Below, piece after piece: positions 12,339 to 51,450 of a DNA stretch of 64,000 nucleotides. Location of the stretch: the NCBI GenBank assembly GCA_036172245.1, contig JAYWIR010000053.1, forward strand, positions 248,001-312,000, read 5' to 3'. The position numbers and the translations under genes are program-made. The notes below the pieces were generated by a model that was not told the DNA's origin, made no database searches, and was given only the letters and a program-made list of their open reading frames with translations. This stretch comes from Raillietiella orientalis. Its lineage: Eukaryota. The first letter of the stretch is position 1, and each line of letters begins with the position of its first letter.

Positions 12339-14651
12339 GGACGTATTTTTTCTTCGCTCCCGAGTGAGTCGACAGAAAGCGGTTTTTTTCTTTGTGTGTG
12401 TTCGTGTGGAACATCGTTGGTGTCCGATGGCAGCGATGCCTGAGGACACTATGATAGAGGTAGGTGTGGGGAAGGCTTGCCCACCCCCACAGCCTACAGA
12501 CTCAGGGGCGTCCGCCCCGGAATCGCCCTCGCGGCTCAAGGCGAGGAGCTGGAGCGCCATGGTGGCCGCGCCGAGCGCGGAAACCATGTCCGAGATGGCG
12601 GCCTACCGGGCAGCTGGGTACAAGCCCAGCTTGGTTTACCAGGTAGGCAATCTCTTTGACGGGCGAACTGCCCGCGCTTTTTCGAAAGCGCTGCAGAACG
12701 CCAACGTGTTGGAAAAGGACCTTGACGGTCTATCCGTGCACAACGGGGGTCAGCGCGTCGAGGTTGTCTGCAAGGACATCACTTCGGCGCAAAGCTTGAT
12801 TACCACACCGCTAAACGTGGACGGACGCAAGATCCTACCAGTCACGATGGACCGCTCCGTAGTGGTCCATCTGACAGAAATCACCAGCCGCATGACGCGT
12901 TCTGCGGTTGGTGATCAGTTAAGAATGTATGGAGATGTTCACGTTCTATGGCCAAAGGCCACAATCTTCAGTGGCTACGAGAGCCTTTTCGGAGGGCAGG
13001 CCGCCGCGCGCGTGACGGTGAAGGAGAGTGGGCTTCCCCACAAACTAGAGGTCAATGGCGAAGTCGTAGACCTCTGGTACGTGAAGAAACCCCGCTTTTG
13101 TGGCTGCTCCAATGCAGAAGGAGACTTGCGCAAGCGGTGCCCGAACATTGTGTGCCACTTATGTGGAGAGAAGGGCCACGTACGCCGCGTATGCCCTAAA
13201 CGCCCCACTCCGGTGCCGCCTGCTGCAAAGAAAGCACAGGCAAAACGCGGAAAATTGGTCAAAAGACCAAAAAGAGATACTGGCCGGCAGCAGCACCTAG
13301 CCTCTGTTCCTCCCACACAGGCGTCGGAAGAAAAACCCTCCGAAGACGCGGGAGTCCAAGACGGCTGGCAGCTGGTCAATGCCAGGAAGGAGAAAAAGGT
13401 GCCCCCCGCGAAACCCGCGAAAGCGGTAAAAAAGACAGCCGCCAAGGCGAAAAAACCTGGGGCGCGCTCTAAGACCATGCGGGAGTGTACGGTGGCACTG
13501 GAGCGCATAGTCGTTCCCGAGATTGCCACCCGGGGCGACGAGCCTTCCCTTGCCGTTTCCGCCGCGCCCGAGGATCGCGACGGCGAACCCTCTGTTTACA
13601 CAGTGGGTGAGCCGCGCGAAATAGCGACGGTCGAAGTCGAGGACGCCGCGTTCGCTCAGGCGGCGGAGGAGCTCGCGTCCACGCTGGCGGAGCGTGGAAA
13701 CCCCTCGCGCAAGGCCGTGCGAAGGCCGGCTCCGGCGAAGAAGGCCCCCACTGGAGAGTTAGGCCTGGGGGCCGGAAGTACATCCTCCTCTCGGAGACAC
13801 CCCCTAGGAAGTCGGGACGCAAGTCAAAGAAACCCAGGAGGCGCCTCCCCTCCACCACCGAGGAGGAGAAGCGGGAAGTTAGCGGTAGCGTGGGAATCCC
13901 GGAGGGGGAACTCCCACGCTCGGAAGCCGTCGAGCCGGCCACCCCCATGGAGGAGTGTGAGCAGGGAAGCGAATTCCTTCCCCTAGTCGCTGAGCCTGAA
14001 CAGAACGCCCCCATGGAGGAGGGCCAACAGGTAGGCGCGACCCCAACTGAGGGTGACCCGCTCGACGCGCTGATAGCCTTGGAGGAGGGGGACCAGGTGC
14101 ACGCAGCGCCTGACCCTCCTCCTTCACCTAGCGTCCCGCCCCAACAGGTGGCGGACGCCGCATCGCCATCTTCCCAGGAATAACACCTGGGCTCGCCAGT
14201 CGCCGTAGGATTCGCGCTCCCTGTTGGAACGTCAACGGGCTGCGCGACGACGGTAACCGGCGAGATAGGGCCGACACTCTGCGTCACTTCGAATTGGCGT
14301 TGCTGCAGGAGATTTACGTGATCACCGCGGCAGACGCTCAGGAGATTCAGGCAATCGCGGGGGGTCGACTGTATTGGCGATGCGCCTGCCGCAACACCTC
14401 TGGGATCGCGTTCTTCGTGAAGACATCCATCGACGCAGCCGTATAGGTCGTACGGTTTGATGACGACGGTCGCATTGGTCAGCTGATTCTCAGCTGGTCC
14501 GACTCGATGGACCTAATCGTCACAAACGTGTTTGGACCAAGCGGCAAACAGGGGTACCGCTACCGCACCAGGCTGCTGGAAACCCTGAAGCGCGACTGGC
14601 TGGCGGATACCAATGTGCGAAAGGCTCACCTGATAGCGGGAGATTTCAATC
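12339..14651 (+). mobile_element. Family C1 LINE 5' part: 5' UTR, ORF1 (12427-14183, one frameshift near 13790), TAACA junction, endonuclease up to GDFN
   Basis: MAAMPEDT..., CPNIVCHLCGEKGHVRRVC; closely similar to the 46620-48470 copy. Confidence 0.9.
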
Positions 14652-22005: not shown

Positions 22006-25000
22006 TCCATCGCTTTGCAGAGATCGACGGCGACCGCCAAAGCACCTATCGTTCCCTTCTTCCGTCGGCGCCTGTTTTTCTTGCCTGCGGCAGTGACTTT
22101 AGCGGCAGCCTGGCTTTGCTGCGCCACAACTTCCTGCAGCTGCATCCATGTACGCGCGAAAAGGATGTTCGCCTCCATGGATCGTCCCGGAACCGCGTAG
22201 GTTTGTTCCGGCATCACCACAGATTCCGCGATACTTCCTAACCGCGCTACCCACAGCTTGGAAAACAACTCGACGTTCGAGTTCACCGAGGTGATCGGAC
22301 GCCAGTTGTTAAGTTGACGCAAGTCTCCGCCTTTCGCCAGGAGACGCACCTTCGCTGGGCGGAAGGAATCCGGGACATTCCCGGATTCACTCATCAGCGT
22401 CGCGAGTTTCAGCGTCAAGGGAATGAGCTCCACTGCGAAGCACTGATAAAACTCTGCAGGGAGCCCATCCTCGCCTGGCGCCTTTCGTCTCTTCAGCCCA
22501 GCGATTGAGGACGAAAATTCATCCGACGTGAAGGGCTCGTCGAGAAGTTCGCGTTCCTCCTCGTCGACAACACGAGCATCCTGAGACAGGAGTATCTCAG
22601 AAAGAATATCCTCCATCGGGGATTCCGCGTCCAGCGAGGAGTAGTAGCGTCTCACAATGCGGCGTACTTCGACTGGGGCCGAACATTCCTGGCCCTTGTC
22701 GTCCAACAGGCATGCTGCTCCGCACTGCCAGACCTGGCGCTCGGCCCTCGCCTTGTACTCTGCGAGACGCCCGACATCGGCGCGTCTCGAAAACGTGCGG
22801 GCCTGCAGAAAGTCTCTACTGTTGGCCACGCCCTCTCCGAAACCGCCTGGAAGCCAATGCAAGCGAAATTGGCAGCAGAACTCGCGGACAGATCTGTTGA
22901 GATCGTCCCAGTCCGCAAGTTCTTGAATGGCAAAGCATCGGAGGTATCCACGTAGATGCTCCGCAGCCTCCGGTTGGCTAAGCCAATCCGCCTGCATCCT
23001 CCAGTTTTGCAACGGAGGCCCCCTGCTTGGCGGAAGGATCTCAAACTCCAACCTGTGGTGGTCAGAAAGCCTAGTGAACAATCTTCCTCTCCTACCCACA
23101 CGCGAATGCAGGTTTTCATCGAGGAAAACGTGATCGAGCGATCTTTCCATTCCAGGTTCGCTGACCATCAAGTTGGCAGCGTGCACGGACGCGCACATAT
23201 CGAGGGGCAGCGCCCGCTCCCTCGGGCGGCTCCAATCGTCGGAGAGCAGGCGGACGTTGAAGTCCCCAGCGACGAGGTGCGCCACTTGGAAACCGGAGTT
23301 GTTGAGCCAGTGTCTCTGCACCTCACCAAAGAAAGCTACTCTTTCTTCGAGGAAGCGAGAGGCACTCGGCGCGTAGACGTTCGTAACGACGAGATCGATG
23401 GACTCGGACCACTTGATGACAAGCTGGCCTATCCGTCCGTCGTCATCCAAACGAACACTACGCACCGCTTCCGCCATTTTTCCTCTTACGAGGAACGCGC
23501 CGCCGCACGTGTGTGCGCCGCCGCACCGCCAATGTAGCGTTCCGCCTGCGCGCTCCTGGATTTCGGCTGCCTGCTCGTCGGAGATTACGTGAATCTCCTG
23601 CAGGAGCGCGAGGTCGGAGGGGCGCAGGGCGTTGGCTACTAATCGCCTCTTCTCGTCGTTCTGTAGTCCGTTCACGTTCCAACACGTTACGGACAGACGA
23701 CGAGAAGACGCGATTCCTCGCATTACTGCTGGGAAGGTGGCGGTTTTTTGCTCGCTTTATCCGGCGAGCAAACGGCGAGCAGCACGACTGGCTGGAGGGG
23801 ACGGTCGCCACCGTCCTCTGTCGTGCTGCATGCATGTAATGCCTCCACGCCAGGCTTAACCCCGTCGGGTTTCGTGGAGACTTCGCGTGGCTTCGCGGCT
23901 AGCGTTGCCTGGCTGCCTACTTTTGGTATGCGCGCACACGCTTTCGAACGAGTTGTCCTCGTCTCGGTGATCGGAACAGCATCCATTTCGGAGTCCGACC
24001 GGCGCATGTTCGATCGGGTTTCGGCCTCCCGCGAAGCAGTGACAGGTTCTGCTGGATTGCCAGCTGTCCTGTTTTCGTTTTCCGTCACCAGAGCATCGCT
24101 TTTGGTGACGGCTGCTTTCCCGGCGCGCGGGTTTTCAGCGTGCTCACGCGCAGTTGCACGAGGGAACTTTGCTGAAGTCTTCTTTACTTCACTACGGTTC
24201 CTCACTTCGCGTGGCGCCGTAAATGGAGATTGTGCTCCATTGCCATCTTTGAAGCCATCCGCGTCTTTAAACGGGAGCACTTTCGATGGGTTCGACACGC
24301 TCGTCATGGACGCTGCCTTCGGAAGGGCTTTTACTCCCTTCTTTGGCATGGCATCCGCGCCAGTCGAGAGCTTGCTCTCTGACTGCGACGGCGTGAGATT
24401 CTTCTCCGCCTTCGCGGTGTTGGATCGCGACGCGGATTTTTTTTTTGCCAACTTTCGAAGTCGACACGGCACAACCCTTCTTACCCGATTTGGGCTTCTC
24501 AGCCACTGCAGTAGGTGAAGGAATGGATCTGACGGTACTGGAAGTGTCCTTACCGCCGTTGTCCATTGACGTCCCCGCCGGTTGCTCGAACTCCGAAAGA
24601 GCCGGGCGTGCTTGGGAAGGACAGCTATTGCGCCTAGGGGGACTTACCATTGCCCCGGATTCCCCGCACCCTTTCTTTTGCGGCTCCCCTGCCGCGAGAG
24701 GGGGCGCGCAGGGCTTCGCGTGCGAGGTTTCCTGCTGCTTTAGGTCGACATTCCGCCTCGCGTGTTTTCGGAATTTCTGCCGTGGGGTCTCCAGGTTTTT
24801 CGCAGATTTTTTCTTTTTATCCGCGCTTGGTTTTTTAAGATGGAGCTCCGCGGCTGCCTTTTTTCGCAAAAGATCCGGTCAATTTTTCAATTGGTGCCCG
24901 GATAGTTTGCAATAACGGCATTTTCCAGAGGGGCTTTTATCCAAACAATGCCCCTCCTTCCCGCATTGCTCGCACGTTCTTACTTTGCCCACGAACCACA

Positions 25001-25734: not shown

Positions 25735-27405
25735 ATGCCCGAGGACACCGCCACCACGGCGAAGGGGGGCGAGCGAACCTCGTCTCCCCAACCCATGGAT
25801 GTGAGGGACATGTCCCCCACGGAATCGTCCCACGCCCAGGCGAGGGCTTGGAGCGCGGTGGTGGCGGCGCCTGCGCCGCCCCCCGCAGAGGAACAGCGGG
25901 CTTACATGGCCGACGGGTATAACCCGGCCTTGTTATACAAGGTAAATGGCCTGTACTTCCCCGCGGTTTTACGGTCGTTCGCGGCCGAATTTAAGAAATT
26001 GAAAGTCCCGGAGGAAGAAGTCCTCGGGCTTTCCGTGCGAAGTGGCGGGCAGCTGGTTGAGCTGAACTGCAAGTCTGCAGGGATGGCTCAGCAGCTGCTC
26101 CGCCTGCCGGTGACCGTGAACGGTCGAAGAATCTTCCCGTTCACGGCGGACAACTCCATCGTTGTCCACCTCACCGGTATTACGATGAGAATGGCCACGA
26201 CCGCCGTTCGGGAAAGTTTGGAGAAGTTCGGGACGGTCCACGCGTTGTGGGCAAAACCCAATGTCCTGGGTTACACCAGGGCATTTAGTGGTTACGCCGC
26301 TGCGCGCGTGACGGTACGTGCCGAGGGTGGGCTACTTCACAGACTGCAGGTCGGGGAGGAGGAGATCGACCTGTGGTATGTGGGGAAACCCGTATACTGC
26401 GGCTTTTGCCAGGTGTCGGGGCACCTGAAGAAGAGATGCCCCAACATCGTGTGCTTGGGCTGCGGCGCAAAGGGGCACATCAGGCAGATGTGCCCCAACA
26501 GAAAAAGGTCAGTTCCTACAGGCGCGAGGAAAGCAGACACGCCGAAGGAACAGGAACGAAGCCACGAAATGGCAGAAACCCACCCTGCAGACCAACCCGC
26601 TGCTCAGCCATCCACCAGCGAACAACCAGCTGGAGAAAGCGCCGAGAACGAGGAAGGTTGGCAGAAGGTGGAGAAGAGGAAAAAGGCCCCGAAGAAGGAG
26701 GTCAAACGAATCACCAAGGCGGCACCGCTGAAGAAGAAGCAGGTGATCCGCGCTTGTTCGGTAAAAATCGAACGCGTGTCGGTCATAAAAACCGCCGAAA
26801 AAATAGCGGTAAAACCGATCGATACCGTCGACTCCGCGCCGATCGCGCCCGCAGTGACGTCACCATCAGCTGGCGACAATGCCGCTCCGGCATTGCCAGC
26901 GAAGGACGTCTGCGCGGCGATCGATGAAGCCGCTTCCATTGCGCCTGCGCCGTGTGTCGGTGCGGAAAGCGAGGAGGTGGCGCGAATCGAAGACGCGACC
27001 TTCGAGCAGGCCGCGGAAGAGCTGGCAGCCATGTTCAGGCGGCCTGCCAAGGCCGAAAAGAAGGCCTTGAGACGACCGGCGACGGCGAAGGGCCCGGAAT
27101 CTTCCGGGTCCGACGCTGAAGCCGGTTGCTCTACTTCCGCAGCCGTGCCGAAGAGGAAAGCTGGCAAGAAGGCCGGATGCCCGAGACGTGTCGCCTCCTC
27201 CCAAGTGGAGAAGCCCATGTCATCGGGCACGGAGGAGGAGGCAATGTGCGTCGCGTCACGCGAGCCTTCTCCGATCCGTGTCTCGGAAGCCAGCGCAATG
27301 GAAGTCGCTGCTGACGACGTGCTCCCGGGTGAGCAGCCGACCGTCGTCACGGCCGCCAACGAGCCGCCTCCCGAAAGGGAGGAGGCCGCCTCCACCCCAC
27401 CATAA
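25735..27405 (+). CDS. LINE ORF1, gag-like nucleic-acid-binding protein with two CCHC zinc knuckles (556 aa, intact)
   Basis: CGFCQVSGHLKKRCPNIVCLGCGAKGHIRQMC; open from ATG to TAA; directly precedes ORF2. Confidence 0.9.
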   Translation: MPEDTATTAKGGERTSSPQPMDVRDMSPTESSHAQARAWSAVVAAPAPPPAEEQRAYMADGYNPALLYKVNGLYFPAVLRSFAAEFKKLKVPEEEVLGLSVRSGGQLVELNCKSAGMAQQLLRLPVTVNGRRIFPFTADNSIVVHLTGITMRMATTAVRESLEKFGTVHALWAKPNVLGYTRAFSGYAAARVTVRAEGGLLHRLQVGEEEIDLWYVGKPVYCGFCQVSGHLKKRCPNIVCLGCGAKGHIRQMCPNRKRSVPTGARKADTPKEQERSHEMAETHPADQPAAQPSTSEQPAGESAENEEGWQKVEKRKKAPKKEVKRITKAAPLKKKQVIRACSVKIERVSVIKTAEKIAVKPIDTVDSAPIAPAVTSPSAGDNAAPALPAKDVCAAIDEAASIAPAPCVGAESEEVARIEDATFEQAAEELAAMFRRPAKAEKKALRRPATAKGPESSGSDAEAGCSTSAAVPKRKAGKKAGCPRRVASSQVEKPMSSGTEEEAMCVASREPSPIRVSEASAMEVAADDVLPGEQPTVVTAANEPPPEREEAASTPP

Positions 27406-27413
27406 ATACACCA

Positions 27414-30400
27414 ATGCGTGGGCTCGCCTCCTGCCGCCGCTTGCGCATCACCTGTTGGAATGTCAACGGGTTGCGCGACGACGGAAAGAGGCGAGATGTA
27501 GCCGCCATACTGCGAGACTTCGACCTGGTGCTCCTGCAAGAGACGCACGTTCTCCGACCGGGAGATGTCCAGGAAATCGAAAGAATCGCGGGAGGGCGGC
27601 TAATGTGGAGGAACGGAACGGACAACTCCTGCGGAGTGGCCTTTCTGCTAAAGCCAACCGTCGACAACTCACTGCGCAGTGCACGGTTCGACGGGGATGG
27701 TCGAGTTGGGCAGCTTGTGTTCAAGTGGTCCGACTCGATCGACCTCGTAGTCACGAACCTGTACGCTCCGGTGAGCAGCCACAGGGCCGAGGAACGCACT
27801 GCGTTATTCGAAACCTTGCGGCGAGACTGGTTGGCCGAAGCAGGCGTGCGAAGGGCGCACCTCATTGCGGGCGATTTCAATCTCCGCCTGCTGGCAGGTG
27901 CGCCCAGCGGACGAGCACAGCTGGTCAACGAGTTGTGCGCAGCCACGCATGCGCGCAACTTGTTGGCCGGCGATGCCGGGAGAGATCGGAACATCGACCA
28001 CATGTTCCTCGACAACCACCTGTGCACGCGGGTGGGAACTCGAGGAACGCTCCCGGCAGAGCTGTCCGACCATCCACGGCTCGTGCTCGAGTTACATCCG
28101 CGCAATAAGGGCCCTCCCCTGAAAACATGGCGCCTGCCAGGGGATTGGTTGCGCCTCGCAGGAGCGGCGGAACATCTACGCTGTTTCCTGCGAGGATTCC
28201 AGCTTCACACGCTTGCGGACTGGGACGAAATGAAGTGCTCAGTCCGTGAGTTTTGCGACCAGTTTCCCCTGGAACGTCTTCCGCCGGGCTTCGGTGAGGG
28301 TGTCCGGAACGAGCGGGCGTACCTACAGGCGCGCCGTTATTCCCGGCGTCCCGACGTCCGTCGCCTGGCTGAATTCAAGGCTGAGGCGGAGAGGCAGGCC
28401 TGGCAGTCAGGCTCGGCCTGCCTGCTGGATCATCAGGGCCAAGAACTCTCCAGCCCAGCCCAGGTAAGCCGCATCGTGCGGGAGTTTTAGTCCTCCTTGT
28501 ACGCGCCACTGACACCTGAGCGCCATTTCGCGCAGCGCCTGCTGCCGGATGGCGCTCCCGCGCTCAAGGAGGAGGACCGTTCCAGATGGGCGGAACCGTT
28601 CACGATGGCGGAGATCATCTCCGCCATCAACAGGCTAAAGAGAAGGAAGTCACCAGGGGAGGACGGCCTGCCCGCGGAGTTTTACCATCGCTTCGCGCCA
28701 GAGCTGTCCCCCCTGGTGCTCAGGTTAAGTGCGCTGATCCGCGAACACGGCGAAGTTCCCGCCTCGTTCCGGTCAGCTAAAGTACGTCTCCTGCCGAAGT
28801 CAGAAGACTTACGCAACATTGGCAACTGGCGTCCCATCACAGTAGTGAATGCGGACGCAAAGTTGTATGCCAAGTTGTGGGCTGAGCGTTTGGGGCGGGT
28901 GGCCGCTTCCGTGGTGAGTTCCGAGCAGACCTATGCTGTTCCCGGACGAACCATGGAGGCCAACCTGCTCCTCGCCAGCTCATGGTGGCAGTTGCGACAA
29001 CGCGTTGCACAGGACGGTCAAGGGAGCCTCGCGCCCCCTCTGACCAAGAAGATCGGGCAGAGGGTGGGATGGACTCGGCGGGAGCCTTTGCCGTCGCGGT
29101 CGATTTGCACAAAGCATTCGACTGCGTCGACCAGGATCTCCTTCTGGAGCTCCTGGAACGCATGGGTTTCACGGCCGTGCTCCAGTCCTACCTGCGCTCC
29201 TGCTGGCGCAACGCGTCTATGAATATTTGTTTCAGCGGCCGGCACGTGTACGGCGTGCCAGTGCGCCGCGGCATACGGCAGGGTGACAGCCTGAGCCCCT
29301 TGCTCTTCAGCATCTACTTTGAGTTGGTGCTTAGGGCATACAGGGTAACTCTGGCAGCCCTGCCGAGCTCGTGTGCCGGCACGCCTGCCGTGTCGGCCCA
29401 TGCAGACGATCTTCTGCTGCTGCTTCCCGGGTCCACTCCGGCGAGTGCGCTCGAGGATTTCTTCGAGTTGCTGCGCCGCGGGACGGGCCTGGAGGTGAAC
29501 AGGGCGAAGTCGTCCATGGTCTTCGTCGGTTCGGCGTGGGCTGGACGGTCGGATTTGATCCGCTTGGGGATCCCCACGGACAGGTGCTTCAAGTACCTAG
29601 GCGTTCCGATGGGGGAATTCTGCGCAGCAGAAGCCTGGTCCGACCGTCTCCAAAAGGCAGCGTTGGCGACCGGTCCGTTCCAAGAAAGCAAGCTTTACTT
29701 GCAGGAACGGGCCGCGGTGTGGAACGCGTTTGCGGCCCCCCTTCTTCGCCCCCTACTTTTTGTGTGCCCCGCCCCTTACTTCATTCGTAAACGAGCAGCG
29801 GGCCTCCTGAGGACAGTCCTTTGGGGCAAAGGGAGGTCCCGTGTGAGGCTCAAAGACTTGTGCGCTCCACGTAAGGACGGAGGACTTGGCGTTCTTACGC
29901 TGGAGCGCATTGAACTACAACTCCGGTTCAGGACTCTCGCCCTTGCGGCGGAATTGTGGGACACGCCTTGGTGCGTTCCAGCACGCCTCCTGGCCCAACG
30001 AGCCTGCGGATTCGACGGACTTTTGTCGTTTCTGCTGGCACGCGACCGCAGAGAAGCACACGGCTGCTTAATCCTGCGTCGCATGGAAGTTGCGGTACGG
30101 GAGAACGCCTGGATCTCCTGCCGCCCAGGGAACTACTCTGCATGGCTGCACGAGTCTGTGTCCACCTGGGTAAAGATCCACGTTTCGGCGGGCACAAGAA
30201 ACACTTGCCTGCAAAGGCACGCCCGCTGGAAACTGCAGGAGATCGTGCAGTCCCACGAAAAGCGCATGTGGGCTTTGATTACCCCCCTTGCCCCAGTGCT
30301 GCCCTTCCTCATCGACGCCAGGGACAGTAGGGAGCTTGGGAAATGGAACGTGTCCTGCACGATTGGAGGCAGGACACAAACGATTATGGCGTGGACATCT

Positions 30401-31224: not shown

Positions 31225-34200
31225 GCGGTTCCGGCTCCGTGCGGCGAAATCGCTACGGTCGCGATCGATAGCGCGGCACACGTTGACGCGAGCGAATCTA
31301 TTGTTCCAGTCCAGTCCACTGGAAGCGTTGTAGTGGCGAGCGAAAGCTCAGCCGCTGCGGTTCCGAACGATAGCGCGCCAGTTGCCGCTATCGAATCGGT
31401 TGTTACGTCACCCGACCTGCCAACAGGCGGCGAAATCCGTGATGACGTGGAACGCATCTCTGATGCAAACTCCGCGCAAGCCGCGGAAGAATTGGCTGCC
31501 TTCCTGAGGCAGCCCGTCAAGGCCGAGAAGAAGGCCGTTCGACGCCCGGCTACGGCAAAAGACCCGGAAACCTCCGAGTCTGACGCCGAAAGCGGGAACT
31601 CGCCCTCCGTTGGCTTGCCGAAAAGAAAACATAAAAATGCAACAGGTGCTCGTAGGCGTGCTGTCACCTCTCAGGAAGAGGTTGAAATGGCATCTGACAG
31701 CGAGGAAGAGTCCATGTGCGTTGCACAATGCGACTCCGTGCCTGAGAGCATCCTTTACCAACTGTTAACTCAGTCCACGGCCGACGGAGTGAGCGATGCC
31801 CCTGAACACTCCAACGACATGGACCCGGACCACCCGTCTTCTGAACAGGAGGCGGTTTCTTCCACCCCACCATAACAACACCATTGCGTGGACTCGCCTC
31901 CTCTAGCCGCTTGCGAATAACCTGTGGGAATGTCAACGGGTTGAGCAGCGACGGGAAGAGGCGAGACGTAGCCGCCATTCTGCGAAACTTCGACCTGGCC
32001 CTACTGCAAGAGACTCACGTGCTCACAACAGAAGCAGGCCAGGATTTCGAAAGAATCACAGGAGGGCGGCTACTGTGGAGGAACGGAACAGACTACTCCT
32101 GCGGAGTGGCCTTTCTGCTGAAGCCGGCAGTCGAAAACTCTCTGCGTAGCGTTCGGTTCGACGGGGACGGTCGAGTTGGACAACTTGTTCGCAAGTGGTC
32201 CGAATCGATCGTCCTCGTTGTGACGAGCATATACGCGCCAATGAGCAACCACGGGGCCGAGGAACGCGCTGCGTTCCTCGAATCCCTGCGGCGAGACTGG
32301 CTGGCTGAAGCAGGCGTACGGAAGGCGCACCTCATTGCGGGCGATTTCAATCTCCGCCTGCTAGCAGGTGCACCCAACAGACGAGCACAGCTGGTCAACG
32401 AGTTGTGCGCAGCAATGAATGCGCGCAACTTGTTGGCCGGTGATACCGGGAGAGATCGGAACATCGATCACATGTTCCTCGACAACCACCTGTGCACGCG
32501 GGTGGGAACTCGTGGAACGCTCCCGGCAGAGCTGTCCGACCATCCACGGCTCGTGCTCGACCTACATCCGCGCAACAAGGGTCCTCCCCTGAAAACGTGG
32601 CGCCTGCCAGGGGACTGGTTGCGCCTCGCAGGAGTGGCGGAACATCTGCGCGCCTTCCTGCGAGAATTACATCTTCAGACGCTCGCGGACTGGGACGAAA
32701 TGAAGTACTCAGTCCGCGAGTTTTGCGAACAGTTTCCCCTGGAGCGTCTTCCTCCGCGCTTCGGAGAAGGTGTCAGGAACGAGCGAGCCTACCTTCAGGT
32801 CCGCCGGTATTCCAGACGACCCGACGTTAGTCGCCTGGCGGAATTCAAAGCTGAGGCGGAGAGGCAGGCCTGGCAGTCAGGCTCGGCCTGCTTGCTGGAC
32901 CATCAGCGCCAAGAACGCTCCAGCCCAGCTCAAGTAAGCCGCATCGTGCGGGAGTTTTATTCCTCCTTATACGCGCCATTAACACCCGAGTGCCAATTCG
33001 CGCAGCAGTTGCTGCCGGATAGGGCTCCCGCGATCGGGGAGGAAGTTTGTTCCAGGTTGTCGGAACCATTTACGGTGGCAGAGATTGTCTCCGCCATCAG
33101 TAAATTAAAGACAAGAAAGGCACCAGAAGAGGACGGCCTGCCCGCGGAGTTTTACAAACACTTCGCGACAGAGCTGGCTCTCCTGGTGCTCAAGATAAGT
33201 ACGCTGATCCGCGAACACGGCGAAGTTCCCGCCTCGTTCCGATCAGCAAAAGTACGTCTCCTGCCGAAGTCAGGAGACCTACGCAACATTAGCAACTGGC
33301 GTCCCATCACAGTGGTGAATGCGGACGCAAAGTTGTATGCCAAATTGTGGGCTGAGCGTTTAGGACCGGTGGCGGATTCCGTGATCAGCCCGGAGCAAAC
33401 ATACGCTGTTCCCGGGCGAACCATGGAAGCCAACCTGCTCCTCGCCAGCACATGGTGGCAGTTGCAACAGCGCTTTGCACAGGACGGTCAAGGGAGCCTT
33501 GAGCAACCCTCCGACCAGAGAGACCCGGTAGAGGGTGGGGCGGAATCGGCGGGAGCCTTCGCCGTCGCTGTCGACTTGCGCAAAGCATTCGACTGCGTCG
33601 ACCAGGATCTCCTTCTGGAGCTCCTGGAACGAATGGGATTCCCGTCCGTGCTCCAGTCTTACCTGCCCTCCTGCTGGCGCAACGCGTTGATTAACATTGT
33701 TTTCAGCGGCCGGCACGTGTATGGCGTGCCAGTGCGCCGCGGCATCCGGCAGGGTGACAGCCTGAGCCCCTTGCTCTTCAGCATCTACTTTGAGTTGGTG
33801 CTGAGGGCATACAGGGTAACTCTGGCAACCCTGCCGAACTCGTGTTACGGCACGCCTGCTGTGTCGGCCTATGCAGACGATCTTCTGCTGCTGCTTCCCG
33901 GGTCCACCCCGGTGAGTGCACTCGAGGACTTCTTCGAGTTGCTGCGCCGCGGGACGGGCCTGGAGGTGAACAGGGCGAAGTCGTCCATAACTTGTACCGG
34001 CTCGGCGTGGGCTGGACGGTCGGACTGGATCCGCTTGGGGATCCCCACGGGCAGGTGCTTTAAGTACCTTGGTGTTCCGTTGGGGGAATTCTGCGTGACA
34101 GAAGCCTGGTCCGACCGTCTACAAAAGGCATCGTTGGCGATCGGTGCGTTTCACGAAGGCAAGTTTTACGTGCAGGAACGGGCCGCAGTGTGGAACGCGT

Positions 34201-40100: not shown

Positions 40101-42806
40101 CCTGAGGGAACTGCTCACAGAAATCGCGGTCCGATTCCTTAAAAAGGTCCTAGTCCTGGAGATTCCGGAGCGTGACGCCTCTCAGGTATTCGCGAAGGTG
40201 TTCCTTCGCACCTGAGAGTGGCATCCAGTTCCCCGGCAGACGCCAATCCCTGGATGGCGGTCCTTTGTCGCAAGACCGCATCTCGAAAATTAACCGGGAA
40301 TGATCCGACAACGTCGACGCAACCCTCCCCCGTTTGCCGACCCGTGAACACAGGTCAGCGTCCAGGAAGACGTGGGCGATGCTGCGGACCATTCCTTTCT
40401 CACCCGCGAACAAGTTGCGCGTACGCATGGCGGCGCACAACTCGTTCATCGCGTTATCTTGTGTTTCTGGCTCACCTGATAACAGACGGAGATTGAAATC
40501 TCCCGCTATCAGATGAGCCTTCCGCCCGTTCGTGTCCGCCAGCCAGTCTCGCTTCAGGGATTCCAGCCGCCTGGTACGGTCGCTGTATCCCTGTTTATTG
40601 CTAAGGGCGTACACATTCGGGACGATCAGTTCGATCGAGTCGGCTAAGCTGACAATCAGCTGACCGACACGACCGTCGTCATTGAAGCGCACGCCCTTCA
40701 CGGCAGCGTCGATGGCCGGCTTCACGAAGAACGCGACCCCGCAGGTGTTGCGGAGGCCGCACCGCCAATACAGCCGACCCCCCGCGATCGTCTCGATCTC
40801 CTGGGCGTCTGCCGCGGTGATCACGTGGATCTCCTGCAGCAGGGCCAGGTCGAGCTCACGCAGGGTGTCGGCCGTATCTCGCCGGTTACCGTCGTCGCGC
40901 AGCCCGTTGACGTTCCAACAGGCGGCGCGAATCCGACGGCGACTGGCGAGCCCAGGTGTTATTCCTGGGAAGATGGCGATGCGGCGTCCCCCACCTGTTG
41001 GGGCGGGACGCTAGGTGGAGGAGGAGGGTCAGGCGCTGCGTGCACCTGGTCCCCCTCCTCCATGGGTAACGGCGCGTCGAGCGGCTCACCCTTAGATGAT
41101 GTCGCGCCTACCTGTTGGCCCTCCTCCATGGGGGCGGGCTGTTCAGGCTCGGCGACTGCAGGGAGGACTTCGCCCCCCTGCTCACCCTCCAACATGGGGT
41201 GGCCGGCTCGACGGCTTCCGAGCGTGGGAGTTCCCCCTCCTGGATTCCCACGCTACCGCTTCCTTCCGGTTTCTCCTCCTCGCTGGTGGAGGGGAGGCGC
41301 CTCCTGGGCTTCTGGGACTTGCGTTCCGACTTCCTGGGGGGTGCCTCCGAGGAGGAGGATGCACTTCCGGCCCCCAGGTCCGACTCACCTGTGGGGGCCT
41401 TTTTCGCGGGAGCCGGCCTTCGCACGGCCTTGCGTGAGGGGTTCTCACGCTCCGCCAGCGTGGACGCGAGCTCCTCCGCCGCCTTTGCGAACGCGGCGTC
41501 CGCAGTGTCGACCGGCGCGTCGCGCGGCTCTCCCTCTGTGTAAACAGAGGGTTCGCCGTCGCGAACCTCGGGCGCGGCGGAAACGGCGAGGGAAGGCTCG
41601 TCGCCCCGGGTGGCAATCTCGGGAACGGCTATGCGCTTCAGTGCTACCGTACACTCCCGCATGGTCTTAGAGCGCGGCCCAGGTTTTTTCGCCTTGCAGG
41701 CTGTCTTTTTTACCGCTTTCGCGGGTTCCGCGGGGGGCACCTTTTTCTCCTTCCTGGCCTTGACCAGCTGCCAGCCGTCTTGGACTCCCGCGTCTTCGGA
41801 GGGTTTTTCTTCCGACGCCTGTATGGGAGGAACAGGGGCTAGCGGCTGCTGCCGGCCAGTATCTCTTTTTGGTCTTTCGACCAGTTTACCGCGTTTTGCC
41901 TGTGCTTTTTTTGCAGCAGGCGGCACCGGAGTGGGGCGTTTAGGGCATACGCGGCGTACGTGGCCCTTCTCCCCGCATAAGTGGCACACAATGTTCGGGC
42001 ACCGCATGCGCAAGTGTCCTACTGCATTGCAGTAGCCACAAAAGCGGGGTTTCCCCACGTACCAGAGGTCTACGACTTCGCCATTGACCTCTAGTTTGTG
42101 GGGAAGCCCACTCTCCTTCACCGTCACGCGCGCGGCGCCCTGCCCTCCGAAAAGGCTATCGTAGCCATCGAAGATTGTGGCCTTTGGCCAAAGCGCGTGA
42201 ACATCCCCGTACTTTCTTAACTGATCACCAACCGCAGACCGCGTCATGCGGCTGGTGATCCCTGTCAGATGGACCACTACGGAGCGGTCCATCGTGATTG
42301 GTAGGATCTTGCGTCCATCCACGTTCAGCGGGGTGGTTATCAAGCTTTGCGCCAAGGTGATGTCCTTGCAGACAACCTCAACGCGCTGACCCCCGCTTAG
42401 CACGGATAGACCGTCAAGGTCCTTTTCCAACACGTTGGCGTTCTGCAGCGCTTTCGAAAAAGCGCGTGCAGTTCGCCCGTCAAAGAGATTGCCTACCTGG
42501 TTAACCAAGCTGGGCTTGTACCCAGCTGCCCGGTAGGCCGGCATCTCGGCCATGGTTTCCGCGCTCGGCGCGGCCACCATGGCGCTCCAGCTCCTCGCCT
42601 TGAGCGGCGAGGGCGATTCCGGAGCGGACGCCCCTGATTCTGTAGGCTGTGGGGGTGGGCAAGCCTCCCCACACCTACCTCCATCGTGGTGTCCTCAGGC
42701 ATCGCTGCCATCGGACACCAACGATGTTCCACACCAAAGAACAATAGAAAAAACCGCTTCCTTTCGACTCACTCGGGAGCGAAGGAAACACACGTCCACT
42801 CGCCAA
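37130..42806 (-). mobile_element. Full-length family C1 LINE, copy A (decayed, mosaic)
   Basis: Both termini match copy B; frameshifts and stops in ORF1 and ORF2; YADD changed to YANV. Confidence 0.92.
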
Positions 42807-42817
42807 GGGCTTCGGTG
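42807..42817. repeat. Target-site duplication GGGCTTCGGTG between tandem C1 copies (other copies: 37119-37129 exact; 48471-48481 GGGATTCGGCG)
   Basis: Read directly at the three junctions. Confidence 0.85.
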
Positions 42818-43023
42818 TTGCCACCCGGGTACGCCCGGGGCGTTTATTGATAAACTTTACATGCGTGGTACAAGGCCCCACCTCGGCCGTAAACACAGGA
42901 CCTGTCGGGACACCGAAACGCAGCCCGGCGTGGCACTCCCCGACAGCGAAGGGGGATGGGGATGAGACAAAAAGTAAAATAAAAAAGAAACAAACAAAAA
43001 GAAGTTGGAGGGCAGGGAAGGGA

Positions 43024-46000
43024 TCACTGGTCGCTGTGGGGAGGGCCCATCCGTCGAACGAAGCCCTCGAGGTCAGCCTGCATATTCCCCAGTTGGGGCC
43101 ATCCGGCAGCTCTTCGCAAGAAGCGTTTGGCATACGGGATGACATCCCTCGCCTGTGGACCCACTCCTTCGTTGTTGGCGTCGCTCCATGCCGCCACGAT
43201 GCCACGGACGCAGCATAAGGCTGCGATGGATGCGGCGGGCTGCAGTGTGTCCTTCACGAAGAGGGGCCGAAGAACCTCTCTGGGAGTGCTGCCCGTAGGG
43301 AGCCCGAGGGTCGTCCCAAACCGTTCCCAAAGGGGTCGGAGGGCTGCACACTCCGCAATAAGGTGGGGAAGCGAATCCCACTCCTCGCACCTGGCACACG
43401 CAGGATCCACAGCTCCCCTCGTCCAGTGGAAGCGGCGCGCGTTGCAGGGTAGACCCCAGTGCAACAAAAGCAACGCCGACTCGTGCCACTTCAGGGGCAG
43501 GATCCTGGATTCTTTCATCACCGGGGGCCACTTCAGCTCATCCCTGGGGATGGCGAGCAGCTCGCCCCATCTTAACAATCCTCGCGGCTGGACGCTCGGG
43601 GTCGAGGCGTCGGCCAGTTCTCCTGTTGTCCAGCCGCTGATCAACTTCTCCCGTCCCTCGATGCAGCAGCAGACTTGCCACCTTGGCGTCCGGGTGCTGT
43701 GAAGTGCCCTCCTTAGGAAGGGTAGCGCCGTAGCTAGGCAGGTCGTCTCTGCCCACGTGCATCTTGCTGGACTCTCCAGGAGATTCCGCAGCGTGCAGCG
43801 GGCGTAGGGGCTGCATCGGAGACGATTCCACGTCTCGTGGCTTCTCTGCTTAACTACTGCCCACGTTCCAATATTCTCCTCCAGCCAGGCGGGGGAGTTG
43901 GCGGGGCAGCAAACCATCCAGCTGTTCTCCTTGGCCAATGTTGCCATGCGCCCGAGCAGTAGGCCGCATCTTCGCATCTTCCGGCCACGGCTCAGAAGAA
44001 AAGACGCGAGTCCATCGCACCGGGACACACGGCTGGCCAGCAGGCGGGCCGGAGTGCACCAAGGGGTGCTCCACATCTTCGCTGCGATGGCGAGGGTTCG
44101 CCACCGCAGCTGCTTTTCCACGCGCTCCAGCGTCAGGAGGCCAAGACCGCCGTCCCGACGCGGAGCGCACAAGTCCTTCAGTGGGACTCGGGGCCTCCCC
44201 TTGCCCCAAAGGGCGATACGGAGGAGGTCCTTCGTCCTCTTCTTGGATTCCACGGTGGGGGGGCAAACAAAAAGCAAGGGGCTGAGGATGGGGGCCGCGA
44301 AGGCGTTCCAAACCGCGGCCCGTTCCGGCAAGTGAAACTTGCCTTCCAGGAACGGGCCGATCGCCGTCTCGACATTTTGGAGGCAGCTGGACCACGCTTC
44401 CGCAGGGGAGTAGTCCCCCAACGGCACACCAAGGTACTTGAAGCACCTCGCCGTGGGGATCCCCAGACGGACCCAGTCCTGCTGCCCTGCCCCCGCCGCA
44501 CCTATTGGCACAACCGACGACTTCGCCCTGTTAACCTGCAGTCCGGTCCCGCGGCTGAGCAGATCGAAGAAGTCTCCGACCGCCTTTGCCGGGGTGGACA
44601 TTGGCAACAAAAGCAGAAGATCGTCGGCGTACGCTGCTACGGCGGGCGTGCCGGGGCACGAGCTCGGCAATGGGGTCAAAGTCACCCTGTACGCTCTCAG
44701 CACCAACTCAAAGTAGGTGCTGAAGAGCAGGGGGCTGAGGCTATCTCCCTGCCTTATGCCCCGCCGCACCGGCACGCCATACACCTTTTGACCGCTGAAA
44801 GAGACGGTAATTATCGCATTCCGCCAGCAAGAGCGCAGGTAGGAAATCAGGGAGGGTGGGAAGCCCATGCGACCCAGGAGCTCCAAGAGAAGTTCCTGGT
44901 CTACACAGTCGAACGCCTTGTGGAGATCGACTGCGAGCGCTAGGGCCCCCTTCCCCGCCCGGGGGTCCCTTCCCAGCCCGGCTGGCGGCCTTAATGTGGG
45001 GTTGCCGACTTTCCCTATCCCTTTCTTCTCTCTTCTCTGCAGGTGCACCCATGTGCTTGCGAAGAAGAGGTTGGCATACATACTTCGCCCGGGAACAGCA
45101 TAAGTCTGCTCCGGGCTAATTACGGATTCTGCCACCTGCCCCAGACGCGAAGTCCATAGCCCTGCGATCAACTTGGCGTCCGTATTCTCGATCGTGATCG
45201 GACGCCAGTTCTTTAAATCCCTGAGGTCTCCCCCTTTCGGCAGGAGCCTCACTCTGGCTGACCGAAACGAGGCGGGAACATCGCCTTCGTCTCGGATCAG
45301 CCTGATCAACTTAAGCAGCAGGGGTGCCAGCTCTTCCGCGAAGCTCTGAAAGAACTCCGCCGGCAAGCCGTCTTCCCCTGGAGCTTTACGCCTCTTGAGC
45401 CTTTTGATACCGGCGAGAATTTCGCCGGTGGTAAAAGGCTCGTCGAGGCTTTCCATCTCCTCCTCCCCTATTGCCGGGGCGCCATCCTGAAGCAAGCGCC
45501 GAGAGGCGTTTCGATCCGGGGGCTGCCTGGCGTAAAGGGAGGAATAGAAACTCCGCACGAGATGCCGTACCGACGCCGGGGACGAACATTCCCGGCCCTG
45601 GGCGTCCAGCAAGCTGGCCGACCCGGATTGCCAGGCTTGGCGTTCGGCCCCGGCGCGGTACTCGGCCAGGCGACGGACATTAGGGGTTCTCTCGTACCTA
45701 CGAGCCTGTAAATAGGCCCGATGGTTGAGAGCACCCTCGCCGAATCCGGGGGGCAGGCGATCCAGGGGGAACTGCTCACAGAACTCGCGGACCGATTCCT
45801 TAAAAAGGTCCCAGTCCTGGAGATTCCGGAGCGTGACACCTCTCAGGTATTCGCGAAGGTATTCCTTCGCACCTGAGAGTCGCGTCCAGTCCCCCGGCAG
45901 ACGCCAATCCCTGGATGGCGGTCCTTTGTCACGAGGCCGCATCTCGAAAATTAACCGGGAATGGTCCGACAACGTCGACGCAACCCTCCCCCGTTTGCCG

Positions 46001-46620
46001 ACCCGTGAACACAGGTCAGCGTCGAGGAAGACGTGGTCGATGCTGCGGACCATTCCCCTCTCACCCGCGAACAAGTTGCGCGCACGCACGGCGGCGCACA
46101 ACTCGTTCATCGCGTTCTCTTGTGTTTCTGGCTCACCTGTTAGCAGACGGAGATTGAAATCTCCCGCTATCAGGTGAGCCTTCCGCACGTTCGTGTCCGC
46201 CAGCCAATCGCGCTTCAGGGAATCCAGCAGCCTGGTACGGTCGCTGTATCCCTGTTTAACGCTGGGGGCGTACACATTCGTGACGATCAATTCGATCGAG
46301 TCGGACCAGCTGAGAATCAGCTGACCGACCCGACCGTCGTCATCGAAGCGCACGCCCTTCACGGCCGCGTCGATGGTCGGCTTCACGAAGAACGCGACCC
46401 CGCAGGTGTTGCGGAGGCCGCACCGCCAATACAGCCGACCCCCCGCGATCGTCTCGATCTCCTGGGCGTCTGCCGCTGTGATCACGTGGATCTCCTGCAG
46501 CAGGGCCAGGTCGAGCTCACGCAGGGTGTCGGCCGTATCTCGCCTGTTACCGTCGTCGCGCAGCCCGTTGACGTTCCAACAGGCGGCGCGAATCCGACGG
46601 CGACTGGCGAGCCCAGGTGT
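43024..46620 (-). CDS. LINE ORF2: endonuclease, RT, zinc finger (1198 aa from the ACA overlapping the ORF1 stop)
   Basis: Open frame TPGLASRRRIRAACWNVNG...QEIH...GDFN...IDH...SDH...YADD...CARCEEWDSLPHLIAEC; start codon is inferred. Confidence 0.93.
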   Translation of the reverse strand, partial: TPGLASRRRIRAACWNVNGLRDDGNRRDTADTLRELDLALLQEIHVITAADAQEIETIAGGRLYWRCGLRNTCGVAFFVKPTIDAAVKGVRFDDDGRVGQLILSWSDSIELIVTNVYAPSVKQGYSDRTRLLDSLKRDWLADTNVRKAHLIAGDFNLRLLTGEPETQENAMNELCAAVRARNLFAGERGMVRSIDHVFLDADLCSRVGKRGRVASTLSDHSRLIFEMRPRDKGPPSRDWRLPGDWTRLSGAKEYLREYLRGVTLRNLQDWDLFKESVREFCEQFPLDRLPPGFGEGALNHRAYLQARRYERTPNVRRLAEYRAGAERQAWQSGSASLLDAQGRECSSPASVRHLVRSFYSSLYARQPPDRNASRRLLQDGAPAIGEEEMESLDEPFTTGEILAGIKRLKRRKAPGEDGLPAEFFQSFAEELAPLLLKLIRLIRDEGDVPASFRSARVRLLPKGGDLRDLKNWRPITIENTDAKLIAGLWTSRLGQVAESVISPEQTYAVPGRSMYANLFFASTWVHLQRREKKGIGKVGNPTLRPPAGLGRDPRAGKGALALAVDLHKAFDCVDQELLLELLGRMGFPPSLISYLRSCWRNAIITVSFSGQKVYGVPVRRGIRQGDSLSPLLFSTYFELVLRAYRVTLTPLPSSCPGTPAVAAYADDLLLLLPMSTPAKAVGDFFDLLSRGTGLQVNRAKSSVVPIGAAGAGQQDWVRLGIPTARCFKYLGVPLGDYSPAEAWSSCLQNVETAIGPFLEGKFHLPERAAVWNAFAAPILSPLLFVCPPTVESKKRTKDLLRIALWGKGRPRVPLKDLCAPRRDGGLGLLTLERVEKQLRWRTLAIAAKMWSTPWCTPARLLASRVSRCDGLASFLLSRGRKMRRCGLLLGRMATLAKENSWMVCCPANSPAWLEENIGTWAVVKQRSHETWNRLRCSPYARCTLRNLLESPARCTWAETTCLATALPFLRRALHSTRTPRWQVCCCIEGREKLISGWTTGELADASTPSVQPRGLLRWGELLAIPRDELKWPPVMKESRILPLKWHESALLLLHWGLPCNARRFHWTRGAVDPACARCEEWDSLPHLIAECAALRPLWERFGTTLGLPTGSTPREVLRPLFVKDTLQPAASIAALCCVRGIVAAWSDANNEGVGPQARDVIPYAKRFLRRAAGWPQLGNMQADLEGFVRRMGPPHSDQ

Positions 46621-48242
46621 TATTCCTGGGAAGATGGCGATGCGGCGTCCGCCACCTGTTGGGGCGGGACGCGAGGTGGAGGAGGAGGGTCAGGCGCTGC
46701 GTGCACCTGGTCCCCCTCCTCCATGGGTAACGGCGCGTCGAGGGGGTCACCCTTAGGTGGGGTCGCGCCTACCTGTTGGCCCTCCTCCATGGGGGCGGGC
46801 TGTTCAGGCTCGGCGACTGCAGGGAGGACTTCGCCCCCCTGCTCACCCTCCTCCATGGGGGTGGCCGGCTCGACGGCTTCCGAGCGTGGGAGTTCCCCCT
46901 CCGGGATTCCCACGCCACCGCTACCTTCCTGCTTCTCCTCCTCGCTGGTGGAGGGGAGGCGCCTCCTGGGTTTCTGGGACTTGCGTCCCGACTTCCTGGG
47001 GGGTGCCTCCGAGGAGGAGGATGCACTTCCGGCCCCCAGGTCCGACTCCCCTGTGGGGGCCTTTTTCGCGGGAGCCGGCCTTCGCACGGCCTTGCGTGAG
47101 GGGTTCTCACGCTCCGCCAGCGTGGCCGCGAGCTCCTCCGCCGCCTTTGCGAACGCGGCGTCCGCAGTGTCGACCGGCGCGTCGCGCGGCTCACCCTCTG
47201 TGTAAACAGAGGGTTCGTCGTCGCGAACCTCGGGCGCGGCGGAAACGGCGAGGGAAGGCTCGTCGCCCCGGGTGGCAATCTCGGGAACGGCTATGCGCTC
47301 CAGTGCTACCGTACACTCCCGCATGGTCTTAGAGCGCGGCCCAGGTTTTTTCGCCTTGCCGGCTGTCTTTTTTACCGCTTTTGCGGGTTCCGCGGGGTGC
47401 ACCTTTTTCTCCTTCCTGGCCTTGACCAGCTGCCAGCCGTCTTGGACTCCCGCGTCTTCGGAGGGTTTTTCTTCCGACGCCTGTGTGGGAGGAACAGGGG
47501 CTAGCGGCTGCTGCCGGCCAGTCTCTCTTTTTGGTCTTTCGACCAGTTTACTGCGTTTTGCCTGTGCTTTTTTTGCAGCAGGCGGCACCGGAGTGGGGCG
47601 TTTAGGGCATACGCGGCGTACGTGGCCCTTCTCCCCGCATAAGTGGCACACAATGGTCGGGCACCGCTTGCGCAAGTGTCCTACTGCATTGCAGTAGCCA
47701 CAAAAGCGGGGTTTCCCCACGTACCAGAGGTCTACGACTTCGCCATTGACCTCTAGTTTGTGGGGAAGCCCACTCTCGTTCACCGTCACGCGCGCGGCGG
47801 CCTGCCCTCCGAACAGGCTATCGTAGCCATCGAAGATTGTGGCCTTTGGCCAAAGCGCGTGAACATCCCCGTGCTTTCTTAACTGATCACCAACCGCAGA
47901 CCGCGTCATGCGGCTGGTGATCCCTGTCAAATGGACCACTACGGAGCGGTCCATCGTGACTGGTAGGATCTTGCGTCCGTCCACGTTCAGCGGGGTGGTT
48001 ATCAAGCTTTGCGCTAAGGTGATGTCCTTGCAGACAACCTCACCGCGCTGACCCCCGCTTAGCACGGATAGACCGTCAAGGTCCTTTTCTAACACGTTGG
48101 CGTTCTGTAGCGCTTTCGAAAAAGCGCGTGCAGTTCGCCCGTCAAAGAGATTGCCTACCTGGTAAACCAAGCTGGGCTTGTACCCAGCTGCCCGGTAGGC
48201 CGCCATCTCGGCCATGGTTTCCGCGCTCGGCGCGGCCACCAT
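46620..48242 (-). CDS. LINE ORF1 gag-like protein (540 aa from an internal ATG; the homologous start at 48374 is cut off by TGG>TGA at 48249-48251)
   Basis: CGYCNAVGHLRKRCPTIVCHLCGEKGHVRRVC; comparison with the 12427 copy (KARSWSAMVAAP). Confidence 0.85.
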   Translation of the reverse strand: MVAAPSAETMAEMAAYRAAGYKPSLVYQVGNLFDGRTARAFSKALQNANVLEKDLDGLSVLSGGQRGEVVCKDITLAQSLITTPLNVDGRKILPVTMDRSVVVHLTGITSRMTRSAVGDQLRKHGDVHALWPKATIFDGYDSLFGGQAAARVTVNESGLPHKLEVNGEVVDLWYVGKPRFCGYCNAVGHLRKRCPTIVCHLCGEKGHVRRVCPKRPTPVPPAAKKAQAKRSKLVERPKRETGRQQPLAPVPPTQASEEKPSEDAGVQDGWQLVKARKEKKVHPAEPAKAVKKTAGKAKKPGPRSKTMRECTVALERIAVPEIATRGDEPSLAVSAAPEVRDDEPSVYTEGEPRDAPVDTADAAFAKAAEELAATLAERENPSRKAVRRPAPAKKAPTGESDLGAGSASSSSEAPPRKSGRKSQKPRRRLPSTSEEEKQEGSGGVGIPEGELPRSEAVEPATPMEEGEQGGEVLPAVAEPEQPAPMEEGQQVGATPPKGDPLDAPLPMEEGDQVHAAPDPPPPPRVPPQQVADAASPSSQE

Positions 48243-48470
48243 GGCGCTTCAGCTCCTCGCCTTGAGCGGCGAGGGCGATTCCGGGGCGGACGCCCCTGAT
48301 TCTGTAGGCTGTGGGGGTGGGCAAGCCTCCCCCACACCTACCTCCATCGTGGTGTCCTCAGGCATCGCTGCCATCGGACACCAACGATGTTCCACACTAA
48401 CCAACACAACAAAAAAACCGCTTCCTGTCGACTCACTCGGGAGCGAAGGAAACACACGTCCACTCGCCAA

Positions 48471-51404: not shown

Positions 51405-51441
51405 CACGGGGACGAGAGCGAAGAAAAACACGTCCGCACTC
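51405..51441 (-). mobile_element. 37-bp 5' terminal remnant of a family E copy
   Basis: CACGGGGACGAGAGCGAAGAAAAACACGTCCGCACTC matches 57318-57354 with one mismatch. Confidence 0.85.
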
Positions 51442-51450
51442 GATTGAAAT
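51442..51450. repeat. Target-site duplication GATTGAAAT (second copy at 57355-57363)
   Basis: Exact 9-bp repeat flanking full-length E. Confidence 0.88.

Follow-up and report, generated by a model that had tools for sequence, protein, structure and literature searches.

The elements of the window

We analysed a 64-kb stretch of DNA from Raillietiella orientalis (contig JAYWIR010000053.1 of GenBank assembly GCA_036172245.1, positions 248,001 to 312,000), hereafter the window, in which positions are counted from the first letter. It has a GC content of about 0.59 and is a nest of related retrotransposons of the non-LTR (non-long-terminal-repeat) type that encode an apurinic/apyrimidinic endonuclease (APE) and a reverse transcriptase (RT). 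Our subject is the junction between their two open reading frames (ORFs): in one lineage of these elements the stop codon of ORF1 overlaps an ACA codon at the position where sister families have the ATG of ORF2. The central element, D_46618, has the following features.

42816..48470, minus strand: element D_46618, full-length and L1-like, with 9-bp flanking direct repeats (blastn against the window; ends and repeats read)
46620..48242, minus strand: ORF1 of D_46618 as present, from the ATG at 48242 through 540 codons to the TAA at 46622-46620, with a CCHC knuckle
43024..46620, minus strand: ORF2 of D_46618, 1198 codons from ACA plus the stop, -1 frame with respect to ORF1, with APE endonuclease and RT
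48249..48251, minus strand: TGA private to D_46618 within a longer ORF1 that starts at the ATG at 48374 (alignment)

A tblastn search with one ORF2 and one ORF1 as queries found dozens of fragments on both strands of the window. In the Pfam search the ORF2 of family D matched Exo_endo_phos (PF03372, E=1.2e-12) and RVT_1 (PF00078, E=4e-22), and the ORF2 of B2 matched zf-RVT (PF13966) on top of these two domains. The layout of ORF2 is therefore an N-terminal APE endonuclease followed by a reverse transcriptase, as in APE-type non-LTR elements, and ORF1 has the CCHC knuckle (zf-CCHC, E=3.3e-5) of a nucleic-acid-binding ORF1. The top solved-structure matches of the ORF2 N-terminus are the endonuclease and the ORF2p of human LINE-1 (long interspersed nuclear element 1, L1), and the atlas neighbours have the same three-domain architecture. 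We call the elements L1-like on the basis of the domain architecture and the top PDB matches only, i.e. not of an RT phylogeny. Target-site duplications are present, namely the 9-bp CCGAA(T/G)CCC around the D copies and ATTTCAATC around F_55352, and so are 5'-truncated copies, B2 among them.

The families are C1 (C_14181 and C_57821), C2 (C_17552), D (D_46618 and D_40957), E, F (two copies), B1 and B2, and all comparative evidence given below was drawn from copies within the window. A protein search for relatives gave 9 matches, the best with 34% identity over one third of the query, and thus no close relative. A metagenome scan gave 25 loci, all with at most 41% identity over short stretches, none of which was used in the comparisons.

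An earlier note on this DNA, made from the letters alone, had spoken of intact ORF2s in AUG-less elements. The ORF2 of D_46618 is indeed open over its 1198 codons, but its ORF1 carries the private TGA at 48249-48251, where D_40957, C_14181 and C_57821 have TGG. The longer ORF1 of D_46618 would begin 44 codons further upstream (ATG 48374). The ATG at 48242, in the context GCCATGG, lies 6 nt after the private TGA.

The ORF1-stop/ORF2-start junctions

Eight copies of the families C, D, E and F have an overlapping stop-start pentamer.

46618..46622, minus strand: TAACA of D_46618; the ORF1 TAA overlaps ACA, which is homologous to the ORF2 ATG of E, F and B1
40957..40961, minus strand: TAACA of D_40957, the tandem neighbour of D_46618, 95% identical over aligned bases, decayed
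14181..14185, plus strand: TAACA of C_14181
57821..57825, minus strand: TAACA of C_57821
17552..17556, minus strand: TAACA of C_17552, a distinct family
10957..10961, plus strand: TAATG of E
23721..23725, minus strand: TAATG of F_23721
55352..55356, minus strand: TAATG of F_55352

The pentamer is TAATG in three of these copies (E and both F) and TAACA in the other five (two C1, C2 and two D), and in all of them the ORF2 frame, i.e. the -1 frame, is opened by the codon that starts on the third base of the ORF1 TAA. The nine pentamers listed by the earlier note, three TAATG and six TAACA, were all found where it had placed them. The sixth TAACA is that of B2, and in all nine pentamers, including this one, the TAA closes ORF1. 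The stop overlaps the first ORF2 codon in the eight copies above and precedes it by 8 nt in B1 and B2. In other words, the distance from the ORF1 stop to the ORF2 N-terminus is 0 or 8 nt at 10 out of 10 junctions, and this in spite of ORF1 tails that can barely be aligned between families. By analogy with SART1, such a held stop position would be a signature of stop-start coupling of the UAAUG type.

The codon at the restart position is an ATG only in E, the two F copies and B1; it is ACA in all five C/D copies and TTG in B2. The first in-frame ATG of ORF2 is codon 171 (46110) in D_46618 and codon 120 (32241) in B2, as had been read before from the letters. The NVNG and QE(I/T)H motifs precede this ATG in both D and B2, and in D the GDFN motif does so too, as seen in the alignment to the human L1 endonuclease; we take the motifs NVNG, QEIH and GDFN to correspond to the catalytic L1 residues N14, E43, D145 and N147. 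Since they lie before the first Met, a start at the first ATG would remove essential endonuclease residues, and the earlier expectation to this effect is borne out by the motif alignment.

The B-type elements

The junctions of the B-type elements have a different spacing.

27403..27416, plus strand: B1 junction, TAA (27403), 8-nt spacer, ATG (27414)
31873..31886, plus strand: B2 junction, TAA, 8-nt spacer, TTG (31884) in place of the ATG of B1; ORF2 intact, copy 5'-truncated

The sequences are TAA-ATACACCA-ATG in B1 and TAA-CAACACCA-TTG in B2. The two are sister subfamilies with 86% nucleotide identity and a whole-ORF2 dN/dS (the ratio of nonsynonymous to synonymous substitution rates) of 0.26. 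In the multiple alignment it is the ATG of B1 and the TTG of B2, not the TAACA of B2, that match the ATG of E and F and the ACA of C and D. The earlier note had grouped B2 with the C/D copies: its TAACA at 31873 is present, but it is not the same case, since the homologous codon is TTG, and on this alignment we regard the B2 pentamer as a coincidence and not as the homologous site. A decayed B-type element, B3, is found at 36100-37128 and 48480-51153, and the D-D tandem insertion interrupts it at about ORF2 residues 312-317. At its junction the TAA is lost and the start-codon position is occupied by ATC.

The TAACA clade and selection on ORF2

In the maximum-likelihood tree of the endonuclease N-terminus the five TAACA copies form one clade (support 89/85). 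C_17552 is the first to branch off in it, and the shortest terminal branch belongs to D_46618. E, F and B1 lie outside this clade, and their homologous codon is ATG. All 5/5 copies of the clade depart from ATG by the same two bases, and for this reason the ACA cannot be an accident that followed insertion. The proposal that ACA is naturally fixed agrees with this result, in so far as all five TAACA copies of the window belong to a single diversified clade, and the tree is most simply explained by one derived two-base change. The clade is old: the ORF1 proteins of C_17552 and D are only 46% identical, and its members differ in the endonuclease N-terminus by a synonymous divergence (dS) of 0.29-0.86.

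Selection was assessed over ORF2 codons 1-156, or 1-98 for C_17552, which is frameshifted later. The Nei-Gojobori dN/dS is 0.19-0.39 in 8/8 TAACA pairs, with bootstrap upper limits of at most 0.69. Two wrong frames over the same DNA give values of 0.79-2.43. The F-F comparison, which reflects mostly recent changes, gives 0.66 (0.44-1.03) and can be considered a near-neutral baseline for this composition. Over the whole ORF2 the two D copies have a dN/dS of 0.45 (bootstrap 0.34-0.59), with 0.75 and 1.50 in the wrong frames. These ratios indicate that in the AUG-less elements purifying selection acts on the endonuclease N-terminus encoded before the first ATG, a stretch of ORF2 that can be reached only from an upstream start; this argues that the elements kept making the full-length ORF2 protein. 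A lack of purifying selection on ORF2 in the TAACA families had been named in the earlier note as an outcome that would refute it; the opposite was found.

The similarity between the lineages is mosaic from ORF1 to the start of ORF2: C_14181 is nearer to D in ORF1 (~0.92) than in the endonuclease (~0.84), and for C_57821 the reverse is true. This pattern suggests recombination or template switching.

Sequence and structure around the junction

Three further features surround the junction of D_46618.

46625..46632, minus strand: TTCCCAG(G) directly ahead of the stop; 5' arm of a local hairpin
46649..46656, minus strand: GGTGGCGG, upstream arm of a candidate bracketing helix (RNAalifold; pair counts)
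46602..46610, minus strand: TCGCCAGTC, downstream arm of the candidate bracketing helix (RNAalifold; pair counts)

TTCCCAG is identical in 8/8 C/D/E/F copies, including three positions that are synonymous in ORF1, whereas the nearby ORF1 tail diverges. The helix predicted by RNAalifold pairs GGWGGCGG, about 30-38 nt upstream, with YTCGCCWSY, 9-17 nt downstream, around the stop-start site. It pairs in 86% of the alignment cells as compared to 40-64% for slid controls, and 1 out of 500 shuffles reaches 86%. A single U-A to A-U switch separates C1/D from the B and F copies, at a position where C_17552 is unpaired. We consider the bracketing helix a candidate that is only suggestive.

Two other structures were considered and rejected. 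The C/D copies can form a local 6-bp hairpin, which in D_46618 consists of CCCAGG (46630-46625), the loop AATAACA and CCTGGG (46617-46612); in E and F the register is shifted and the pairing amounts to only 4-5 bp, and the hairpin is indistinguishable from chance. A 13-bp helix in D (46661-46649 with 46586-46576) is not conserved in the other families.

A model for the translation of ORF2

We give slightly better than even chances to the explanation that the C/D lineage makes its ORF2 protein by AUG-independent, termination-coupled reinitiation from a bicistronic RNA. According to this model a ribosome that ends ORF1 at the UAA would stay on the RNA and restart in the -1 frame, at the overlapping ACA or within a few codons of it, and the product would be the full-length endonuclease/RT protein. 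The ancestral layout would have been a stop with an AUG at the stop or just after it, as is retained in E and F (UAAUG) and in B1 (UAA, 8 nt, AUG). In the ancestor of C and D the AUG would have changed to ACA, after which the lineage kept diversifying. We infer the coupling of the restart to termination, the codon that is used and any role of UUCCCAG or of the helix; the fuller scenario, in which an autonomous L1-like clade exchanged the AUG of the ancestral UAAUG for the non-cognate ACA (two mismatches) and has replicated long since, with the conserved UUCCCAG and the helix possibly holding the ribosome, is a tentative one to which we give slightly less than an even chance.

A number of points weigh against this explanation. 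ACA is two positions off AUG, and passages of PMC4848598 describe non-AUG reinitiation as less efficient than that at AUG, while in a passage of PMC10275272 near-cognate restarts reach ~45% of wild type or less. For the bracketing helix there is one compensatory switch among few related sequences, counted on the very alignment that yielded the helix. The single-sequence fold z-scores of six junctions are uneven (-2.7, -1.5, -2.6, -0.6, -0.7 and -0.1), i.e. the folds beat shuffles in D (z ~-2.7) and E (z ~-2.6) and not in F or B. The GC content at third codon positions (GC3) is 0.73, which could lower the apparent dN/dS somewhat. The five TAACA copies may represent only three independent lineages, since the two D copies lie next to each other in tandem and a C/F junction is common to C_14181 and C_57821. 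Moreover, the only intact TAACA ORF2 lies in D_46618, whose ORF1 has the private early stop, so that the window holds no demonstrably active TAACA copy. Finally, given the hint of recombination, the ACA could be younger than part of the divergence on which the dN/dS values are based.

Alternative explanations

The restart may take place not at ACA but on a near-cognate AUY seven codons upstream, or on an AUA at position -1, giving a short N-terminal extension. ORF2-frame codon -7 is ATC or ATT in 5/5 TAACA copies, and the difference between the two is silent in the ORF2 frame but a Ser-to-Leu change in ORF1. As near-cognates AUC and AUU are weak, the AUA at -1 is present in only three of the five copies, and a single codon conserved among five related sequences carries little weight. 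Reinitiation start codons may precede the stop, according to passages of PMC10275272 and PMC4848598. We regard this possibility as unlikely; it is a sub-variant of reinitiation without an AUG and not a true rival of it.

If ribosomes underwent a programmed -1 frameshift within the final codons of ORF1, the result would be an ORF1-ORF2 fusion that needs no start codon. ORF2 is in the appropriate frame, in which the five TAACA copies have no stop over the 17-23 codons upstream of ACA, and overlapping -1 ORFs are present in several insect and plant LINEs, AUG-less ORF2s included, where they are usually ascribed to frameshifting. However, an X XXY YYZ heptamer in the phase of ORF1 is found within the overlap at none of the ten junctions, in agreement with the earlier note, which had seen no canonical slippery heptamer. 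Inspection of the last codons by eye showed no site for re-pairing of the tRNAs after a slip. The open -1 overlap of 11-27 codons is what one would expect of chance runs of the -1 frame inside ORF1 (median 22, mean 31), and in sister families whose geometry is identical an ATG stands precisely at the junction, a codon for which a fusion would have no use. The frameshift fusion, which the earlier note had kept as an alternative, is thus disfavoured by the missing heptamers and the chance length of the overlap, and we consider it distinctly unlikely.

An AUG could also be added at the level of RNA, by cis-splicing into UUCCCAG/G, by trans-splicing or by editing of the ACA. TTCCCAG, a pyrimidine run followed by CAG, stands directly before the junction and is invariant in the eight C/D/E/F copies, and the 5' region has a donor-like GAG/GTAGGT. 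On the other hand, E and F keep TTCCCAG though they have an ATG, the ORF1 tail is contiguous in all 5 TAACA copies, so that none of them is a retrotransposed spliced form, and ACA could become AUG only through two different types of edit. A splice from the GAG/GTAGGT donor to the CAG/G acceptor was rejected because it reads straight into the TAA and is out of the ORF2 frame. On balance an AUG supplied at the RNA level is very improbable.

DNA contigs of the runs X1-X3 were aligned to the D element at 80% likeness, and one contig of 313 nt crosses the junction with 2 differences. Among the 40 listed of 1054 differences none falls at 46618-46622 and no joint is seen at the acceptor-like site, which is weak evidence from which we draw no conclusion. 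The runs X2 and X3 match only a stretch of low complexity, rich in purines, within the 3' region of D (42962-43003), with very deep, unrelated contigs, and these contigs are not evidence that the element is present in those samples.

The least probable explanation is that the C/D elements live without a full ORF2, either borrowing the protein in trans from the ATG families, which are indeed present in the same window, or starting at Met171 without an endonuclease: the sole intact TAACA ORF2 does sit in a copy whose ORF1 has a nonsense codon, but the low dN/dS within the TAACA clade applies precisely to the codons upstream of Met171, and the whole-ORF2 ratio between the D copies is likewise below the wrong-frame controls, which are near or above 1.

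Comparison with known systems

UAAUG translational coupling was reportedly described by Kojima et al. (2005) in SART1, a telomeric non-LTR retrotransposon of Bombyx mori. SART1, as far as the passages cited below describe it, resembles the present elements in being of the APE type, in its bicistronic RNA, in the UAA that overlaps the first ORF2 codon and in the -1 frame of ORF2, and its UAAUG pentamer is the one found in families E and F. According to passages of PMC3894237 and PMC5972666, the coupling in SART1 needs a downstream structure. RNA structure near the site is thus implicated in SART1, whereas here it is a candidate only, namely a helix whose two arms lie upstream and downstream of the site. 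The other difference from SART1, in the same partial account, is that the codon is AUG there and ACA in the C/D lineage.

Translation of human LINE-1 ORF2 is said to be the subject of Alisch et al. (2006). The AUG-independence of human L1 reportedly emerged from work on engineered mutants. Human L1 is likewise L1-type, and its ORF2 translation is unconventional, needs translation of ORF1 and is reported to be AUG-independent in the parts of PMC11485995 that deal with it. Natural human L1, however, keeps its AUG and has a 63-nt spacer (a passage of PMC5972666), whereas in the C/D elements the AUG is naturally absent across the clade and stop and start overlap.

In the calicivirus VP1/VP2 system the stop and the start are also overlapping or adjacent after a long ORF. 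Passages of PMC4848598 and PMC10275272 report that reinitiation in caliciviruses also proceeds from non-AUG codons, at lower levels, and that Met-tRNAi is still used. These non-AUG cases, as described in part there, are laboratory mutants and not wild type. The calicivirus TURBS (termination upstream ribosomal binding site) lies upstream, by the same partial account, has UGGGA as its core and pairs with 18S rRNA; a counterpart in the present elements is not established.

Arrangement and ends of the elements

The two D copies are arranged head to tail in tandem, with the target-site duplication repeated between the units, i.e. CCGAATCCC, D_46618, CCGAAGCCC, D_40957, CCGAAGCCC. The repeats are located at 42807-42815, 48471-48479 and 37119-37127. 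The layout suggests repeated insertion at a regenerated target, and the dN/dS of 0.45 between the copies argues against a simple neutral duplication of the pair. Likewise, behind F_55352 come, in this order, ATTTCAATC and another F-type 5' end (51395-51450).

C_14181 and C_57821 break off at an identical base within the GDFN codons, GGAGATTTCAATC / GAGTGCGGACG... (14650/14651 and 57356/57355), and about 156 nt of an F-type 5' end follow each of the two breakpoints. Judging from the sequence, the breakpoint could represent either a site-specific insertion of F or an old segmental duplication. The dN/dS between the two C1 parts is 0.34, which one would not expect of neutral duplicates.

A conserved 5' terminus, (T)TGGCGAGTG-GACGTGTKTTT-CTTCGCTC, is common to elements of different families. 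It is found at 48440-48470(-), 42776-42806(-), 14651-14690(+), 57316-57355(-), 51395-51440(-) and ~19660(-), and its conservation may reflect a functional constraint on the 5' end. The 3' ends have the form AATAAACGCCCCGG...GGGTG, without a poly(A) tail.

Implications

The geometry of the junction is itself known from SART1; what differs is a naturally fixed non-cognate codon at the position where a junction of this geometry has its AUG. We found no published description of a natural, AUG-less LINE ORF2 that overlaps the stop, although most of the older literature in subscription journals lay outside the search, so this is not proof that none was published. Passages of two reviews (PMC3894237; PMC11485995) still call the translation of a LINE's second ORF an open question.

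The sister families with UAAUG, UAA-8nt-AUG and UAACA in one genome constitute a natural allelic series for the requirements of ribosome restart. One survey of L1 elements, in the part that describes its procedure, demanded a start codon for each ORF, and annotators who demand an ATG would mis-call ORF2s of the present kind as truncated or dead. If the tentative scenario of a long-lived clade that restarts on ACA is true, it would mean that termination-coupled restart in LINEs needs neither an AUG nor a near-cognate codon, and that this has been demonstrated by nature itself.

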